Positions 1,710 through 7,246 of a stretch of 64,000 nt of DNA are shown piece after piece. The translations under genes were made by a program, and so were the position numbers. Every line of letters begins with the position of its first letter. Position 1 is the stretch's first letter. The notes under the pieces are model-generated. The model was not told the DNA's origin, ran no database searches, and saw nothing but the letters and a program-made list of their open reading frames with translations. The stretch spans positions 7,898 through 71,897 of the forward strand of contig JAZPYE010000002.1 of the NCBI GenBank assembly GCA_045544035.1. Direction: 5' to 3'. The DNA comes from Acutalibacteraceae bacterium (GTDB lineage Bacteria > Bacillota > Clostridia > Oscillospirales > Acutalibacteraceae).

Positions 1710-1952
1710 TTACATCTGGTCGTGGAAGGTGCGGGATATAACCTCATCCTGCTGTTCCTTTGTAAGTTTAATAAAGTTAACGGCATAGCCGCTTACTCTA
1801 ACGGTTAATTGCGGATATTTTTCGGGGTGAGCCTGTGCATCAAGCAGGGTCTCCTTTGAAAAAACATTAACATTCAGGTGATGTCCACCCTGCTTAACAT
1901 AACCGTCAAGTAAAGAAACAAGATTATCAATTTGATTTTCGGTCGCTTTCAT
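1710..1952 (-). CDS. Stand-alone glycyl-radical domain protein (GrcA/YfiD-like), equivalent to the C-terminal ~80 aa of PFL
   Basis: 80 aa: ...[55 protein letters not shown]..., containing the RVSGYAV glycyl-radical motif. AAGGAG (1959-1964, minus strand) sits 6 nt upstream of the ATG. Confidence 0.85.
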
Positions 1953-1973: not shown

Positions 1974-4079
1974 CTATTCTTCAGTGTCAAGACCTTCAAA
2001 AAGCGTAGGCGACATACAAGCACCGTTTGCGCAGTCAAAGTCAACCTCAATATCTCCCGCAAAAATGCGGTCATCCTTACCGAGAGCTCCAGGGACGATT
2101 GAGAAGGTGTTTGAAATGCCATCCTGAGCATCGACAAAGGGCAGCTTTGCAACCGATGCAAGGGAAGCAACGGCACCGTTTGTGTCTCTACGGTGCATGG
2201 GGTTAGCACCGGGGGCGAATGCCTCGCCTTTTTTACGACCGTCAGGTGTGGCGCCTGTATTTTTACCATAAACAACATTCGAGGTAATGGTTAAAATCGA
2301 GGTGGTGGGAACACTGTTTCTGTAGGTGTGATTTTTTCTGATATGCTCCATAAATCTATGAACGATTTGATAGGCAATGGAGTCAACGCGGTCATCATCG
2401 TTGCCGTATTTCGGGAAATCACCCTCAACCTCATAGTCAACAACAATTCCCTGCTCGTTTCTAATTGTCTTAACCTTGGCATATTTAATAGCAGACAGTG
2501 AGTCAGCCACAACAGAAAGGCCTGCAATGCCCGTTGCAAACCAGCGGGTTACCTCCTTATCGTGAAGGGCCATCTGGATTTTTTCGTAGCAATACTTATC
2601 GTGCATATAATGAATGATATTAAGGGTATGCACATAAACCTTGGCAAGCCACTGCATCATTTGGTCATAGGCCTTCATAACCTCATCGTAATCAAGATAC
2701 TCGCTGGTTATGGGGCGATATTCAGGGGCAATTTGCTTGCCCGAAATTTCATCAATACCGCCGTTAATTGCATAAAGCAGACACTTTGCAAGGTTGGCTC
2801 TGGCGCCGAAGAACTGCATTTCCTTGCCCAGTTTCATTGAAGAAACACAGCAGGCGATGGCATAATCATCACCGTGGTGGAAACGCATTAAATCATCGTT
2901 TTCATACTGAACCGATGAGGTTTCAATGGAAATTCTGGCGCAGTAACGCTTAAAGTTTTCAGGCAGCCTTGTGGACCACAAAACGGTGAGATTGGGTTCG
3001 GGCGCGGCGCCTAAATTCTCAAGGGTATGAAGATAACGATAGGTCATCTTTGTAACCATATGTCGGCCATCAATGGCAACACCGGCAAGGGATTCGGTAA
3101 CCCACTGGGGGTCGCCTGAAAATAGAGAGTTATATTCAGGGGTTCTGGCAAATTTAATAAGGCGCAGCTTCATAATAAACTGGTCAACCAGCTCCTGTAT
3201 TTCGCTTTCGGTGTAGACCCCGTTTTTAAGGTCGCGCTCGGAATAAATATCGATAAACGTTGATGTGCGACCAAGGGACATTGCGGCGCCGTTTTGCTCC
3301 TTAACAGCAGCCAAATAGCCAAAATAAAGCCACTGAATTGCCTCTTTGGTATCCTTTGCAGGGCGGGAAATATCATAGCCATAGCTTGCGGCCATTTTCT
3401 TTAAATCCTCAAGGGCTCTGATTTGTTCAGATAGCTCCTCACGGGCGCGGATAATTTCCTCATACATTGCAGAACGAGTGGTTTCCTTCTGCTCTGCCTT
3501 GTCCTCAATAAGGCGGTCAACACCATAAAGAGCAACACGGCGGTAGTCACCGATAATACGGCCACGGCCGTAGGCATCGGGAAGCCCTGTTATAATGTGA
3601 CTTGAACGGCAGGCGCGCATTTCGGGGGTGTAAACATCAAAAACACCTGCGTTGTGGGTTTTTCTATGAACGGTAAAGAATTCCTTAACCTCAGGGTCAA
3701 GGGTGTAGCCGTTATCGGAACAGGCCTTTTCGGCCATGCGAATTCCACCATAAGGCATCAAGGCACGCTTAAAAGGCTTGTCGGTCTGGAAGCCGACAAT
3801 CTTTTCCTTTTTCCTATCGAGATAGCCGGGGCCGTGAGAAACAATGGTGGAAATCACCTTGGTGTCCATATCAAGAACACCGCCTGCTTCCCTTTCCTGC
3901 CGATTTAGCTCGGTCACCTGCTCCCACAAATCCATCGTATCCTCTGTGGGGCCCACAAGAAAGCTTTCATCCCCATCATAGGGCATAAAATTGTGCTTAA
4001 TAAAGCTTCTAACATTTATTTCTTTAGTCCAAGTACCCTCTTCAAAGCCTTGCCATTCTTCGAACATTTTAAATGTCAA
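1974..4079 (-). CDS. pflB: Formate C-acetyltransferase (pyruvate formate-lyase) catalytic core without the glycyl-radical domain
   Basis: 701 aa collinear with PflB, including the active-site Cys pair (IACCVSSMK) and ...[12 protein letters not shown]. It then diverges into a 31-aa tail and stops at TAG 1974-1976. Confidence 0.9.
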
Positions 4080-4423
4080 TTTAAAATCCTTCTTTCACTT
4101 TTTTGAACATCTTTTCTACATTTAAAAGTATAACATAAAACACGCTGTAAGTATAGTAGAAAAACCTTGCAAAAATTTAAAATAAATATTTGAAAATTTA
4201 GCAAATATATCAAAAATTAGTAATGATTATCGTTTTTATTTTAACAAACTTTTTATTTTTTCTCAAATTTAATTTAAGAAAAAAAGAAATGCCAAATAAA
4301 ACGAAAAAAAATTAGATTTTTTATAAAAACAAACATTTATTTTAAAGTATTATTTTCTTTACTATATTATATAACAAATCAAAAGAATTTTCAAGAGCAA
4401 CCGGCCGCTTACTAAAGCGTATA

Positions 4424-4466
4424 ATAAAAATTGAGTGTTCATAACTCAAATCCGTTATGAACACTC
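4424..4466 (-). terminator. Rho-independent terminator of the AT-rich two-gene unit
   Basis: Perfect 13-bp stem: GAGTGTTCATAAC (4433-4445) with GTTATGAACACTC (4454-4466) and an 8-nt loop. On the minus strand it is followed by AATTTTTATT. Confidence 0.7.
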
Positions 4467-4644
4467 AAAATGGTCGGAGTAGCGTTATAGTAATCAAGCG
4501 TAAACCCGCATAAATACTAGGTTTTCCGCAGTTATAAACAGTACAAAGGTCTTAATTACTATGATTAAGTGGGTTCGGCAATTGATAAATTGTTGTGAAT
4601 GTTTTTGGGAAGATTGTTGATTAATAGAGGAAAATTAAATGCTA

Positions 4645-5067
4645 TTATCGAAAAGCATCAATACTCAAATCCGTTTTTATTATGTATTTTCTGTCGTAAT
4701 TATCATAAAGAATGAATTCTACTTTATCGTTAGGATTACAAATTGCAGACAAATTTTGTTTACAATAACTTTTATAAATATCTTGCTCAACGATATCTAT
4801 ATTTTTCGTTGTTGCTGGCGGCAAAGTTAATTCTTTTAAACCATCAAAGTATTCGACGTGAAGTACATGTGTGTCTATACAGCAAATCATTCTTGTTATT
4901 ACAACTGTTCTAAGCGAATTGTTAGATAGGTAAATTTTGAAATTTGGTAACATTTCAAAATAGGTCTGTATTTTTCTTGTTTTATCCCAAAGATTCAACC
5001 AAATACCAACAATACCAACAATTGTTGCTAACGTAGTTCCAATTGCAGAAAGCGCGTTCCAATTCAT
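4645..5067 (-). CDS. Hypothetical protein with an N-terminal transmembrane helix and no recognisable family
   Basis: 140 aa. The N-terminus MNWNALSAIGTTLATIVGIVGIWLNLW is a single hydrophobic helix. Its start overlaps the upstream stop (ATGA, 5064-5067). Very AT-rich codon usage. Confidence 0.6.
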   Translation of the reverse strand: MNWNALSAIGTTLATIVGIVGIWLNLWDKTRKIQTYFEMLPNFKIYLSNNSLRTVVITRMICCIDTHVLHVEYFDGLKELTLPPATTKNIDIVEQDIYKSYCKQNLSAICNPNDKVEFILYDNYDRKYIIKTDLSIDAFR

Positions 5068-6545
5068 AAACGATCACCTCTATAATCTTCCAATGCTTTT
5101 ACTTCTTTACTATTTTTTCTACAAATAGGACAACTACTTCCTTTATTTCTATTCTTGATAGTTGCCTGCCATTCGTGACCATTGTCACATTTCCACCATA
5201 CTTTTTTACTGCTGTTAGCTGTAAAGTTTTCTGGCTTTAATTCGCCATTTTTTTCATAATTCCAATCTTTCGCCAGAGTAGGATTAACCGTTCGTAAATC
5301 ATTTTCACCTTTAATAGCAAGCCTGCCAGAACAATATGGGCACCCCTTACCGTTATTTCTACTATATATCGCCGCCTGCCATTCGTGACCATTGTCACAT
5401 TTCCACCATACTTTTTTTCCACTATTCGTTGTAACATGTTCCGGTTTTAAGTTGCCGTTTTTTTCAGAGTTCCATTCTTTTGCTAGCTCTAAATTAGAAA
5501 ACAAAAGAGAATTTTCTTTTTCTGTGTATTCTCGTAAGTTTTCTATGAAAATTGCATCTCTTTCAAGGTTAACATCAACGCTCGATCCAATTATCTCGCT
5601 TAAAATTTCTTTAAGTATTTTGGGCAAATCCTTTTGTCCTTTTTGAACAATATAATCTTTGGAACTATTATTTAACGGAGGCAAGCCTTCTCTTATTCTA
5701 TACAGTTTAATCCCATCTTTTTTACACTTTTGATTTTTTTCTAAATCTTTTTTTGTTTTGTTTTTATGCCAAAGGTATCCATCATATTCAATGGCGATTC
5801 TTTTTGATGGAATATAAATATCTAATTCGTATCCGTTCTCTTTGTATAGATGAATCACCTCTAAATCGTATTTTTTAAGATAATACAAAATCGCATACTC
5901 GGGAAGAGAAGTTTTTCGTTCGGAATTACAAATAGGGCACCCACATCCCGTGTTTCTATGGAGAATCGTTGCTTGCCATTCGTGACCTTTGTTACATTTC
6001 CACCATACTTTTTTGTTGCAATTAGGCAATATATCTGTAGGTGTTAATCCATTGTTTTTTTCATAATTCCATTCTTGTGCTAAGGTTGGATTAACCGTTT
6101 GTAAGTCGTTTTCCCCCTTAACAGCAAATCGACCAGCACAGTAAGGGCATCCGTTTCCGTTGTACCTACTTTGTATTATTGCTTGCCATTCATGACCTTT
6201 ACTACATTTCCACCAGACTTTCTTTCCACTACTAGGCAATACATCCTTGGGCGTTAATCCATTGTTTTTTTCATAATTCCATTCTTGTGCTAAAGTTGGA
6301 TTAACTGTTTGTAAATCATTATAGCCTTTAATAACTAATATTCCTGCGCAATATGGGCATCCTTTACCACTATGTCTATTATATATAGTCGTTTCCCATT
6401 CGTGTCCTTTATTGCACTTCCACCATACTTTTTTATTACTTCCAAGGGTTAATTGAGCGGGGTCAAAATTTAATTCGTTATTCTTTCCCCAATTCCATTC
6501 TGCCATCAGTTCGGCATTATCAATTACGTATTTCTTTTCTGCCAT
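5064..6545 (-). CDS. Multi-zinc-ribbon (DUF4379-like treble-clef repeats) protein with a central Vsr/DUF559-like PD-(D/E)xK nuclease domain
   Basis: 493 aa. Five repeats of W-N-x-EKN...KKVWWKC-x-KGHEW-x11-GCP(Y/I)C occupy aa ~12-75, 85-145, 155-207, 354-412 and 424-477. The core at aa ~213-286 is YELDIYIPSKRIAIEYDGYLWH...D..K...GIKLYRIRE. RBS GAGGTG lies 9 nt upstream of the ATG. Confidence 0.75.
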   Translation of the reverse strand: MAEKKYVIDNAELMAEWNWGKNNELNFDPAQLTLGSNKKVWWKCNKGHEWETTIYNRHSGKGCPYCAGILVIKGYNDLQTVNPTLAQEWNYEKNNGLTPKDVLPSSGKKVWWKCSKGHEWQAIIQSRYNGNGCPYCAGRFAVKGENDLQTVNPTLAQEWNYEKNNGLTPTDILPNCNKKVWWKCNKGHEWQATILHRNTGCGCPICNSERKTSLPEYAILYYLKKYDLEVIHLYKENGYELDIYIPSKRIAIEYDGYLWHKNKTKKDLEKNQKCKKDGIKLYRIREGLPPLNNSSKDYIVQKGQKDLPKILKEILSEIIGSSVDVNLERDAIFIENLREYTEKENSLLFSNLELAKEWNSEKNGNLKPEHVTTNSGKKVWWKCDNGHEWQAAIYSRNNGKGCPYCSGRLAIKGENDLRTVNPTLAKDWNYEKNGELKPENFTANSSKKVWWKCDNGHEWQATIKNRNKGSSCPICRKNSKEVKALEDYRGDRL

Positions 6546-6583
6546 AACCTTGGCACCTCGCTTTTATAAATATCTTTTATGAT

Positions 6584-6612
6584 ATTATACCATAAATTTC
6601 TTCTATAGTAAA
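6584..6612 (-). promoter_or_regulatory. Sigma-A type promoter of the zinc-ribbon nuclease operon
   Basis: On the minus strand: TTTACT (6612-6607), a 17-nt spacer, then TGgTATAAT (extended -10, TATAAT = 6589-6584). It lies about 40 nt upstream of the ATG at 6545. Confidence 0.55.
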
Positions 6613-6867
6613 TATGCACTGTTTTATGATAACAGCAAACAAGAAAGGAGTGATGTTATTTGTTTGTTTAATAATTTTGAGTCAGTAAAAATCGACAGAA
6701 GAATGTGAAAAAGCATAAAAAGCGTTTATAAAAAGAAAATGCCGAAATCGGAATTTTGCAAAATTTTATAAATTAGTCTGCGAAGCAGACACCGAACTTC
6801 TTCACTATTCACTATTACTTATTACTTCCAAAAATCCTCTATCCAAAACGTAGAGAATAGTGAAGAG

Positions 6868-6907
6868 TGAAAAAGTAAAAATCCCCATTCTTACGAATGA
6901 GGATTTT
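6868..6907 (-). terminator. Rho-independent terminator directly after tRNA-Leu
   Basis: On the minus strand: AAAAATCCTCATT-CGTAA-GAATGGGGATTTT, followed by TACTTTTT. Confidence 0.6.
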
Positions 6908-6990
6908 TGGTGCGGGTGACAGGACTTGAACCTGCACGCGTGAGCGCTAGCTCCTAAGGCTAGTGCGTCTGCCAATTCCGCCACACCCGC
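6908..6990 (-). tRNA. tRNA-Leu (anticodon UAG), class II with a long variable arm and encoded CCA
   Basis: 83-nt cloverleaf: acceptor GCGGGTG/CACCCGC. Anticodon arm CTAGC-CTTAGGA-GCTAG (anticodon TAG). Variable arm CGCTCACGCGTG. T-arm CAGG-TTCAAGT-CCTG. Discriminator A plus CCA. Confidence 0.92.
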
Positions 6991-7057
6991 ACGTATTAAC
7001 TTTTTAAACGACATTTTAGTTTAAAACGGCAGCCGCACTCCGTTACTCTTGCGGTGC
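6969..7057. repeat. Copy 1 of a perfect 89-bp direct repeat (tRNA-Leu nt 1-22 plus 67 nt of its upstream region)
   Basis: Checked base by base and identical to 7158-7246: ctgccaattccgccacacccgcacgtattaac...cttgcggtgc. Confidence 0.95.
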
Positions 7058-7157
7058 CCGGCGTTTATCTTCGGTGGTAAACCACCTTGAACACTGCCGA
7101 CCGCGGCGCCTTTTCAGCATTTGCTTCATCCTCCACCGGAGGCGCAAATTCTGAAAA
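7058..7157. other. 100-bp GC-rich spacer with nested hairpins between the two repeat copies; function unknown
   Basis: On the minus strand, TTTTCAGAATTTGC pairs with GCAAATGCTGAAAA (one mismatch) and encloses CCTCC-GGT-GGAGG. A second hairpin is GGTGG-TTTA-CCACC. The segment is much more GC-rich than its flanks. Confidence 0.4.
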
Positions 7158-7246
7158 CTGCCAATTCCGCCACACCCGCACGTATTAACTTTTTAAACGA
7201 CATTTTAGTTTAAAACGGCAGCCGCACTCCGTTACTCTTGCGGTGC
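7158..7246. repeat. Copy 2 of the 89-bp direct repeat (an orphan 5' fragment of tRNA-Leu plus upstream region)
   Basis: Identical to 6969-7057. After tRNA nt 22 the sequence diverges, so no cloverleaf can be completed. Confidence 0.95.

Follow-up and report, generated by a model that had tools for sequence, protein, structure and literature searches.

A tRNA- and tmRNA-associated mobile element of gut Clostridia that combines a DUF4379 zinc-finger nuclease with an exchangeable cargo gene

Background

The homing endonuclease I-Bth0305I, which is encoded in a group I intron within a phage recA gene, joins two N-terminal NUMOD/helix-turn-helix (HTH) motifs to a C-terminal nuclease domain (PMC3239194). 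A 2025 paper describes intron-encoded phage proteins in which three to five repeats of about 60 amino acids (aa), distantly related to the Pfam families CapR, DUF4379 and DUF723, are combined with a distant EDxHD/Vsr domain; these CapR-like proteins, encoded in phage group II and group I introns and with the nuclease at the C-terminus, are called a large unrecognised outgroup of homing endonucleases with thousands of unannotated relatives (PMC12350094). Here we analyze a locus in a 64,000-nucleotide (nt) stretch of contig JAZPYE010000002.1 from an Acutalibacteraceae bacterium (hereafter, the window), where the genes for a 493-aa nuclease with five DUF4379 repeats and for a 140-aa membrane-anchored protein lie downstream of a tRNA-Leu(UAG) gene. 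The loci and contigs with which it was compared are labelled L001 to L124.

The 3' ends of tRNA and transfer-messenger RNA (tmRNA) genes are classical attB sites of integrases, and genomic islands that target them have integrase-less derivatives, namely cis-mobilizable elements (CIMEs) and satellite tycheposons. Comparison of the window with related loci firmly shows, at the level of sequence, that the nuclease gene belongs to a mobile accessory element that lacks an integrase, resides at the CCA end of tRNA or tmRNA genes and consists of one constant gene and one variable slot. The host setting of this element family is gut Clostridia. The interpretation that we favor, with a probability of about 0.5, is that positions 6907..4471 of the window represent a selfish homing-type nuclease element that carries cargo of the defence-island type.

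Results

The element is mobile and accessory

Near-identical copies of the segment are found in different surroundings. The contigs L112 to L116 encode an identical 140-aa protein and are 97–99% identical to the window from at least 6848 down to exactly position 4471 (L113 is 97% identical from 6848 onward); past this point, they continue into two other flanks, three when that of the window is included (in L112, the genes for a Zn-peptidase, YgjV and shikimate kinase; in L114, a third sequence). More generally, the promoter, the 5' untranslated region (UTR) and both genes are common to loci with unrelated, non-syntenic flanking genes.

A useful comparator for the orthologous interval, L118, was obtained through homologues of the neighboring GH92 gene. 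This nearest relative shows 91–94% nucleotide identity to the window over pflB, tRNA-Leu, GH92 and guaB, and the similarity stops at 6904, at the tRNA-Leu end. In L118, the CCA of tRNA-Leu is followed by a 267-nt insert that encodes no nuclease, is bounded by 11-nt direct repeats of the tRNA-Leu end, and terminates in the 54-nt right arm of the element with the repeat CACCCGCACCA; next come a PadR-HAAS-DUF4097 operon and the sequence homologous to the window from 4470 onward, including the hairpin region discussed below. Given these contents, the islet is absent from L118 and its place is taken by other accessory DNA, so that L118 carries a nuclease-less allele of the same slot rather than a clean empty site. 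In L119 (83% identity in GH92), a 14-nt repeat of the tRNA-Leu end surrounds a 192-nt insert, also without a nuclease. The inserts in L118 and L119 therefore identify the tRNA-Leu 3' end as a recurrent insertion hotspot. The first-pass annotation of this DNA had taken the segment for horizontally acquired cargo; the near-identical copies in three flanks, together with the absence from the pflB-to-tRNA-Leu interval of L118, bear this out and identify the islet as accessory rather than core DNA. A metagenome scan with PflB yielded 80 pflB loci (at most 84% identical) that have no element, tRNA or GH92 gene upstream; none of these is syntenic upstream of pflB, and the conclusion from them is limited to a lack of conservation of the pair at those loci.

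The association with tRNA genes is not limited to the window. Of the 12 distinct nuclease contexts with upstream DNA, nine follow a co-oriented tRNA or tmRNA gene at a distance of 100–455 nt (the RNA gene is detected by ARAGORN in eight cases; the ninth, L013, shows only a partial tRNA-Pro 3' end). The conserved element sequence begins right after the CCA in L009 (tRNA-Pro-UGG), L012 (Pro-CGG), L013 (partial Pro), L022 (Pro-GGG) and L027 (Ser-GCU), and after a copy of the tmRNA end in L023. In these six loci, to which we refer as L009-type, the element starts with a hairpin and a T run, and the arms are about 85–90% identical across six different tRNA/tmRNA species. The elements are about 3.2 kb long and extend approximately 500 nt beyond the cargo gene, with a gene for a 64-aa SHOCT_2 protein before the right end; in L009, L014 and L027, a locus-specific terminator follows directly after the right end. 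At the right junction of the L009-type elements, no attR-type repeat of the tRNA end was found. The GC content of the element genes is 0.30–0.38, compared to 0.39–0.46 for the carrying loci and up to 0.58 for neighboring genes. Thus, the proximity to a tRNA gene, to which the first reading of the locus had attached weight, is meaningful: related elements are found directly downstream of tRNA/tmRNA genes, and those of the L009 type start at the very 3' end.

Several additional features of the L009-type elements were observed. Just upstream of the nuclease promoter, there are three to six tandem 19-nt repeats, CTCCCGTAAACGAGCAGTT (Table 1), accompanied by the palindrome ACATAAC.GTTATG; these might be bound by a regulator or by the nuclease through its zinc fingers. 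Both features are missing from the window copy; when the 19-nt repeats were sought in the window, the matches did not exceed chance. The SHOCT_2 gene (phrog_2996; L009 7606–7800, with equivalents in L012, L013, L014 and L027) that closes these elements has its own promoter and is followed, before the right end, by three repeats of TTTGCACCCC, a module that is absent from the window copy. In L023, the tmRNA 3' end is duplicated over 23 nt (4124–4146 and 4286–4308) ahead of the element.

Extent of the element in the window

As delimited by these alignments, the mobile unit in the window spans 6907..4471 (2.4 kb), from the tRNA-Leu CCA to a terminus that is similar to a tRNA 3' end. The left arm opens with a terminator-like hairpin serving the tRNA (6908..6877, terminator scan). 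In the right arm, the first 70 nt or so (to about 4576) are common to all relatives and the similarity to the L009-type copies stops there, with the remainder confined to the window-type copies. The right arm also carries a conserved 27-mer (4517..4491), which is present in the L118 remnant as well, and its terminus, CTACTCCGACCA (4482..4471), resembles a tRNA 3' end. Where the window has CTACTCCGACCA, L112, L113 and L115 end in the 17-nt sequence ACCCGCACCAAAAATCC, which corresponds to the 3' end of the window tRNA-Leu plus 7 nt of the first flank; the left junctions of these three copies are off contig.

The segment is compositionally foreign, as originally described: the GC content is 0.29–0.37 over 4600–6600 and about 0.44–0.50 in the flanking genes. 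The extended -10 promoter at 6584–6612 is present, as are both open reading frames (ORFs), one for a zinc-ribbon nuclease and the other for a membrane-anchored protein, with the ATGA overlap between the end of the former and the start of the latter; the untranslated tail, estimated at about 180 nt, measures 174 nt. The promoter, 5' UTR and ribosome-binding site of the nuclease gene are nearly invariant across six independent other loci. Between 6907 and 4471, the window contains only these two ORFs, besides ORFs that overlap them in a different frame or on the other strand, and no recombinase gene, in agreement with the initial remark that neither an integrase nor a transposase accompanies the pair; in the related element copies examined, no recombinase was called either.

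The perfect hairpin that had been described as the terminator of the islet does exist, with a 15-bp stem at 4468..4431 rather than a 13-bp stem at 4424–4466. It is, however, absent from L112 to L116, and the L118 sequence that aligns with it is flank located upstream of the pflB promoter. Because the hairpin lies outside the shared element and matches the L118 flank, it is assigned to the native flank, and its identification as the element's own terminator was rejected. It is probably the displaced original terminator of the tRNA gene, and at its position in the window it would also end the element transcript. Thus, of the autonomous unit proposed at the outset, the foreign and mobile character stands, whereas its bounds shift to take in the 295 nt that separate the promoter from the tRNA and to exclude the hairpin. 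The 13-mer GAGTGTTCATAAC of the hairpin (4433–4445 and 4454–4466) recurs right after the right end of the L013 element (L013 3443–3455), and the hairpin loop (4439–4456) matches the 3' end of the small gene (4658–4675) at 16 of 18 positions; both resemblances may be due to chance.

The nuclease

The 493-aa protein contains five DUF4379 repeats (Pfam, E = 1.7e-105), which are treble-clef zinc fingers, and a central region with a weak match to REase_MTES_1575 (aa 218–286, 26 bits, below the Pfam cut-off of 38.2). It is not a nuclease of an unrecognised kind but belongs to a very large family with the DUF4379 plus Vsr/EDxHD-like architecture. The full-length protein has matches in at least 7,984 clusters at 90% identity, and its central 155 aa alone are represented by 5,770 clusters at 50% identity; the family members are 493–848 aa long, with a varying number of zinc-finger repeats. 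An exact-sequence look-up of the window nuclease returned no record. The nuclease core evolves under purifying selection, with a ratio of nonsynonymous to synonymous substitution rates (dN/dS) of about 0.1.

Across 46 diverse family cores, E216, Y222, D242, E253, D255, G256, H260, K270 and D330 are invariant (residue numbers are the position in the core fragment plus 195); D267, the last Asp, is the majority residue in the family alignment but is not invariant. A PDB search started with the single core sequence gives chance matches only and a family profile is needed: with the profile, one solved relative is detected at a significant level, 3r3p, the catalytic domain of I-Bth0305I (E = 0.0027, 18% identity). 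This alignment places H260 at the position of H213, which is mutated (H213A) in the 3r3p crystal construct, and begins just past D242; from the spacing, D242 would correspond to D196 of I-Bth0305I, which is also mutated in that construct. Homology and fold thus predict that D242 is the Mg-binding Asp and H260 the general-base His, aligned with D196 and H213 of I-Bth0305I. The AlphaFold2 (AF2) model of aa 196–350 has a predicted local distance difference test (pLDDT) score of 90, and a Foldseek search started with this core model retrieves the two chains of the same entry at the top (3r3p_A and 3r3p_B, E = 6e-4, target template modelling (TM) score 0.68, root mean square deviation 3.3), with the Escherichia coli Vsr entries 1cw0 and 1vsr at ranks 4 and 8. 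Against PHROGs, the nuclease matches phrog_559, phrog_681 and phrog_3339, which are annotated as 'HNH endonuclease', 'endonuclease' and 'homing endonuclease'; its relatives in 184 phage records (e.g., T5-like, Listeria and Campylobacter phages; at most 38% identity) are annotated as endonuclease or HNH. Homology and the modelled fold thus identify the 493-aa protein as a modular, probably sequence-specific endonuclease of the Vsr/EDxHD type, in which the five zinc fingers would serve as modular DNA-binding units around the catalytic core. The best match is a homing enzyme, not Vsr, and the protein is not a housekeeping repair enzyme.

The variable cargo slot

The genome scan and contig look-ups show that a DUF4379 nuclease precedes every homologue of the 140-aa protein that has at least 74% identity and upstream DNA (L001, L008, L009, L010, L012, L013 and L022), whereas homologues with 67% identity or less have no nuclease upstream. 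Conversely, the nuclease is followed by different genes in other loci: an unrelated 121-aa ORF and, behind it, the final 29 codons that are left of the 140-aa gene in L023, a 240-aa ORF in L027 to L030, genes of the DUF5677 and TMEM164-like families in L031, and a 266-aa ORF in L120 and L124 (65% identical to each other); in L025, there is no gene after the nuclease. Conserved sequence borders the variable gene on both sides in the L009-type copies as well as in L031: the nuclease gene on one side and a non-coding block on the other. A scan of the alternative cargo (the 121-, 240- and 266-aa, DUF5677 and TMEM164-like proteins) against defence models gave no match. The replacement ORF and the remnant of the small gene in L023 (6539–7093) amount to direct evidence of cassette replacement.

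The ATGA overlap between the two genes, which had been read as translational coupling, is confined to the window-type copies, where a 16-nt deletion removed the nuclease stop codon; in the other loci, the stop codon is kept, about 35–60 nt separate the genes and a ribosome-binding site of its own is conserved in front of the small gene. The overlap was therefore rejected as a sign of functional linkage. Likewise, a fixed combination of the nuclease with a membrane partner does not hold: the two genes do co-occur within one clade, at 74% identity or above, yet the pairing is not obligate, the nuclease being found with unrelated genes or none and the small protein without the nuclease elsewhere, which counts against a two-gene system by the first-pass annotation's own standard. 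Because the pairing is limited to one clade, the contents of the slot vary and the coupling is not conserved, the 140-aa gene is exchangeable cargo and its product, by these sequence comparisons, a swappable passenger rather than an obligate partner.

The 140-aa membrane protein

The 140-aa protein has 92 homologous clusters, mostly at 58–98% identity. Its AF2 model (pLDDT 84) consists of a transmembrane helix (aa 3–30) and a beta-sandwich, for which the fold search finds only generic Ig-like or pilin-like beta-sandwiches (TM score of at most 0.5). Searches of Pfam, NCBIfam, PADLOC and PHROGs yield nothing meaningful, and there is no homologue among the phage and plasmid records searched. The gene is under purifying selection (dN/dS about 0.2), and its dS to the other loci is lower than that of the nuclease gene.

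In other genomic contexts, homologues of this protein are encoded between hsdS and hsdR in type I restriction-modification (R-M) operons (L002/L015 and, in Butyrivibrio, L018 to L020); in L017 and L004 the hsdS side is seen before the contig ends, and in L016 and L021 the hsdR side. The genes next to distant homologues include those for an AbiJ-like protein with the AbiJ_NTD4 domain (PDC-S32), a HipA-like protein (PDC-M03A), a DUF4238 protein (DUF4238-Pers) and a Schlafen/AlbA_2 protein (PDC-S50); some other distant homologues are solitary (L005 to L007). Thus, the suspected defence connection is supported for the small protein by the company of its distant homologues in type I R-M operons and beside candidate defence genes. 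Neither protein of the window matches PADLOC-DB 2.0 at E-values up to 0.1, in line with the initial impression that the pair corresponds to no named defence system. Since its homologues occur inside type I R-M and defence islands, we propose, by analogy and with low confidence, that the 140-aa protein is most likely a stand-alone, envelope-level phage-exclusion or abortive-infection-type factor. The homologues located just after hsdS (L017 to L020 from Butyrivibrio, L002/L015, L003, L016 and L021) are 46–67% identical to the window protein, and the type I R-M operons that contain such homologues also hold a conserved small ORF of 63–64 aa.

Other features of the locus

The coordinates of the features are collected in Table 1.

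Table 1. Features of the tRNA-Leu-associated element in the window and of the 19-nt repeat regions in related loci
Feature	Position	Strand	Basis or remark
tRNA-Leu(UAG)	6990..6908	minus	ARAGORN and Rfam tRNA, 58 bits
Left arm	6613..6907	minus	AT-rich leader; diverged version of the left arm that related loci share
Nuclease promoter, TTTACT-17-TATAAT, TG-extended	6612..6584	minus	consensus scan
493-aa nuclease ORF	6545..5064	minus	ORF list, Pfam
Nuclease zinc fingers 1–3	about aa 7–210		
Nuclease Vsr/EDxHD-like core	about aa 211–345		
Nuclease zinc fingers 4–5	about aa 346–480		
140-aa ORF, N-terminal transmembrane helix	5067..4645	minus	ORF list, AF2 model
Non-coding tail, 174 nt	4644..4471	minus	right arm of the element
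Right arm	4471..4644	minus	alignments with related loci
Perfect 15-bp hairpin and T run	4470..4426 (stem 4468..4431)	minus	inverted-repeat and terminator scans
Promoter-like site	4394..4366	minus	scan; also in the homologous flank of L118
19-nt repeat region, L009	about 4960–5010		
19-nt repeat region, L012	4927–4983		
19-nt repeat region, L013	610–710		
19-nt repeat region, L022	4966–5016		
19-nt repeat region, L027	3843–3897		

The 5' side of the tRNA-Leu gene contains a perfect 89-nt direct repeat (6969–7057 and 7158–7246), which includes the first 22 nt of the tRNA and 67 nt upstream and flanks a GC-rich segment of 100 nt (7058–7157). This segment is kept in L118 (approximately 4324–4560), where a repeat of 36 nt from the 5' end of the tRNA flanks it, and is present in inverted orientation within the repeat-bounded insert after tRNA-Leu in L119 (7380–7520). 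Rfam gave no match; the 100-nt segment may represent either another small insertion, on the 5' side of the tRNA, or a structured RNA. Short GC-rich hairpin arrays with constant AT-rich words occupy the DNA that separates the tRNA or flank from the element in L118 (4230–4060, minus strand; TATATCATC) and in L031 (3500–3950; GTGAAAT and AATGATG). On the other side of the element, pyruvate formate-lyase is encoded by two in-frame minus-strand ORFs, a 701-aa body (4079..1974) and an 80-aa glycyl-radical part with the RVSGY motif (1952..1710), with a stop codon and 21 nt of spacer between them. A frameshift in pflB was considered and rejected: the homologues in L034, L035 and L037 also end at 684–698 aa, which indicates a natural split.

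Discussion

Under the favored interpretation, the nuclease would act like a free-standing homing endonuclease and serve as the selfish engine of the element. It would cut the element-free 3' flanks of tRNA genes, or otherwise favor the inheritance of its own locus, after which repair would copy the nuclease gene together with whatever fills the adjacent cargo slot. The cargo, including the 140-aa protein, would hitch-hike and might confer phage exclusion or a similar advantage.

Several observations weigh against this interpretation. Homing is a putative activity, deduced from family resemblance. Classical homing requires homologous flanks and by itself leaves jumps between different tRNA genes unexplained. 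The tRNA-like terminus of the window copy and the repeats of 17 nt (L112, L113 and L115), 11 nt (L118) and 14 nt (L119) are a classical signature of a site-specific recombinase, and a fragment encoding the N-terminus of an integrase is found about 0.5 kb beyond the right end of the L013 element. The nuclease core is central rather than C-terminal, its DNA-binding modules are zinc fingers rather than NUMODs, and three of the 12 nuclease contexts are not beside a tRNA. Finally, with no informative fold, PADLOC, phage or plasmid match, the role of the 140-aa protein is a case of guilt by association. A bolder proposal, under which the nuclease itself recognizes the conserved 3' part of tRNA and tmRNA genes and drives integrase-independent insertion or gene conversion of its own 2.4–3.2-kb element exactly at the CCA, would define a new class of tRNA-targeting homing elements in bacterial chromosomes that double as shuttles, their dedicated slot taking up interchangeable cargo of the defence type such as the 140-aa membrane protein; this proposal is rather unlikely.

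The best-placed competing explanation, which we consider possible albeit rather unlikely, is that the locus is a non-autonomous integrative element, similar to a CIME or a satellite, that is moved by a tyrosine recombinase acting in trans on att sites at tRNA ends, so that the nuclease itself is cargo with a role in, for example, defence, addiction or exclusion. The established use of tRNA and tmRNA 3' ends as integrase attachment sites, the mimicry of such an end at the right terminus, its extended version ACCCGCACCAAAAATCC in three copies, the short tRNA-Leu-end repeats around the L118 and L119 inserts (the former with the 54-nt right arm), the tmRNA-end duplication in L023 and the integrase fragment near L013 are all in line with this explanation. 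However, none of the examined element copies contains a recombinase gene, the L009-type right junctions lack the tRNA-end repeat, and the spread of one element family over six tRNA/tmRNA species is not predicted by the specificity of a single integrase. Moreover, no protein other than the nuclease is kept in every copy, and the niches in which its phage relatives are found are those of homing endonucleases.

The first-pass annotation viewed the two genes as a two-component anti-phage or anti-plasmid system, which could have the membrane protein as sensor or regulator and the nuclease as effector. The presence of the nuclease directly upstream of all eight homologues of the small protein that have at least 74% identity and upstream DNA, the purifying selection on both genes and the defence-island company of the small-protein family agree with such a system, and the frequent occurrence of some downstream partner could be accommodated by a conserved effector with variable sensors. 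Nevertheless, this explanation is improbable: PADLOC recognizes neither protein, the pair is limited to one element clade, the nuclease also being found with five other downstream arrangements or alone and the small protein without the nuclease, the apparent translational coupling is an artefact of a lineage-specific deletion, and in L023 the small gene is replaced while the nuclease is intact. In addition, a protein that joins many tandem sequence-reading zinc fingers to a Vsr/EDxHD core looks more like a site-specific homing endonuclease than like an effector that cuts indiscriminately. The last option, a housekeeping Vsr-type mismatch-repair or other core repair nuclease that happens to lie beside a tRNA gene, draws on the Vsr fold of the core and on E. 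coli Vsr being among the top structural matches, but is effectively refuted by the absence of the nuclease from the orthologous slot in L118, and is further opposed by the low GC content, the variable flanks and copy contexts, the varying zinc-finger number in proteins of 493–848 aa, and a best match to a homing enzyme rather than to Vsr.

Comparison with described systems

The nuclease family and its probable homing nature have already been hinted at in the literature. In the literature searched, there is no description of a chromosomal element with this tRNA-end architecture, of the swappable cargo slot, or of the connection of the 140-aa family to both nuclease elements and type I R-M. Proteins with DUF4379 repeats and a nuclease domain form thousands of clusters in gut Clostridia and phages and are usually annotated only as 'zinc-ribbon domain-containing protein'; the locus analyzed here and its relatives give this family a setting, that is, compact integrase-less units at the CCA of tRNA and tmRNA genes with a swappable gene. 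If the nuclease drives insertion, these units would represent a chromosomal homing system that reads DNA with zinc-finger repeats, which bears on gene flow among gut bacteria and could offer a scaffold for programmable nucleases. If a recombinase moves the element in trans, the element still marks a hotspot of defence and accessory genes that is useful for finding new cargo functions, including that of the 140-aa protein.

Among the known systems, the Vsr repair enzyme is a single-domain protein of about 150 aa, whereas the window protein has 493 aa and five zinc fingers, and is accessory, with variable flanks. Defence hotspots and type I R-M islands resemble the element in having a variable slot between conserved flanks, and the 140-aa homologues between hsdS and hsdR add to this likeness; they differ in that neither the 140-aa protein nor the alternative cargo tested matches a defence model. 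The CIMEs and tycheposons share with the element the insertion at tRNA/tmRNA 3' ends, some short tRNA-end repeats, the accessory cargo and the accumulation of remnants at the site. Of the traits of integrase-borne islands, the position at the tRNA 3' end is seen in the element, and repeats of 10–17 nt are present in the window-type copies, L118 and L119 and absent in the L009 type; in contrast to these islands, the element has no integrase, is only 2.4–3.2 kb long, includes one repeat-less subtype and occupies six tRNA/tmRNA species.

With respect to nucleases, SegB of phage T4, a free-standing homing endonuclease in a tRNA gene cluster, is a GIY-YIG enzyme within a phage genome that has no dedicated cargo slot and for which there is no evidence of insertion at a CCA end. 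The likeness to the window nuclease is in the location of a free-standing nuclease gene beside tRNA genes and in the co-inheritance or amplification of neighboring cargo via nuclease-induced recombination (PMC13096335). I-Bth0305I (PDB 3r3p; PMC3239194) is the best solved relative of the window core by both profile and fold: aligned between the two are the Asp that binds Mg, the general-base His and, from the 'IE.DG..WH' segment, the Glu, and both proteins are bipartite, with modular DNA-binding repeats and a small Vsr-like nuclease. The similarity is remote, and the window protein differs in being the product of a free-standing chromosomal gene, with a central nuclease domain between three and two DUF4379 fingers. 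The CapR-like homing-endonuclease outgroup (PMC12350094), likened here by description only, shares a related domain vocabulary with the window protein, that is, DUF4379-type repeats and a Vsr/EDxHD core. Compared to these intron-encoded proteins, the window nuclease is encoded by a free-standing gene after a tRNA, carries repeats on both sides of the nuclease domain, and is accompanied by a variable cargo slot.

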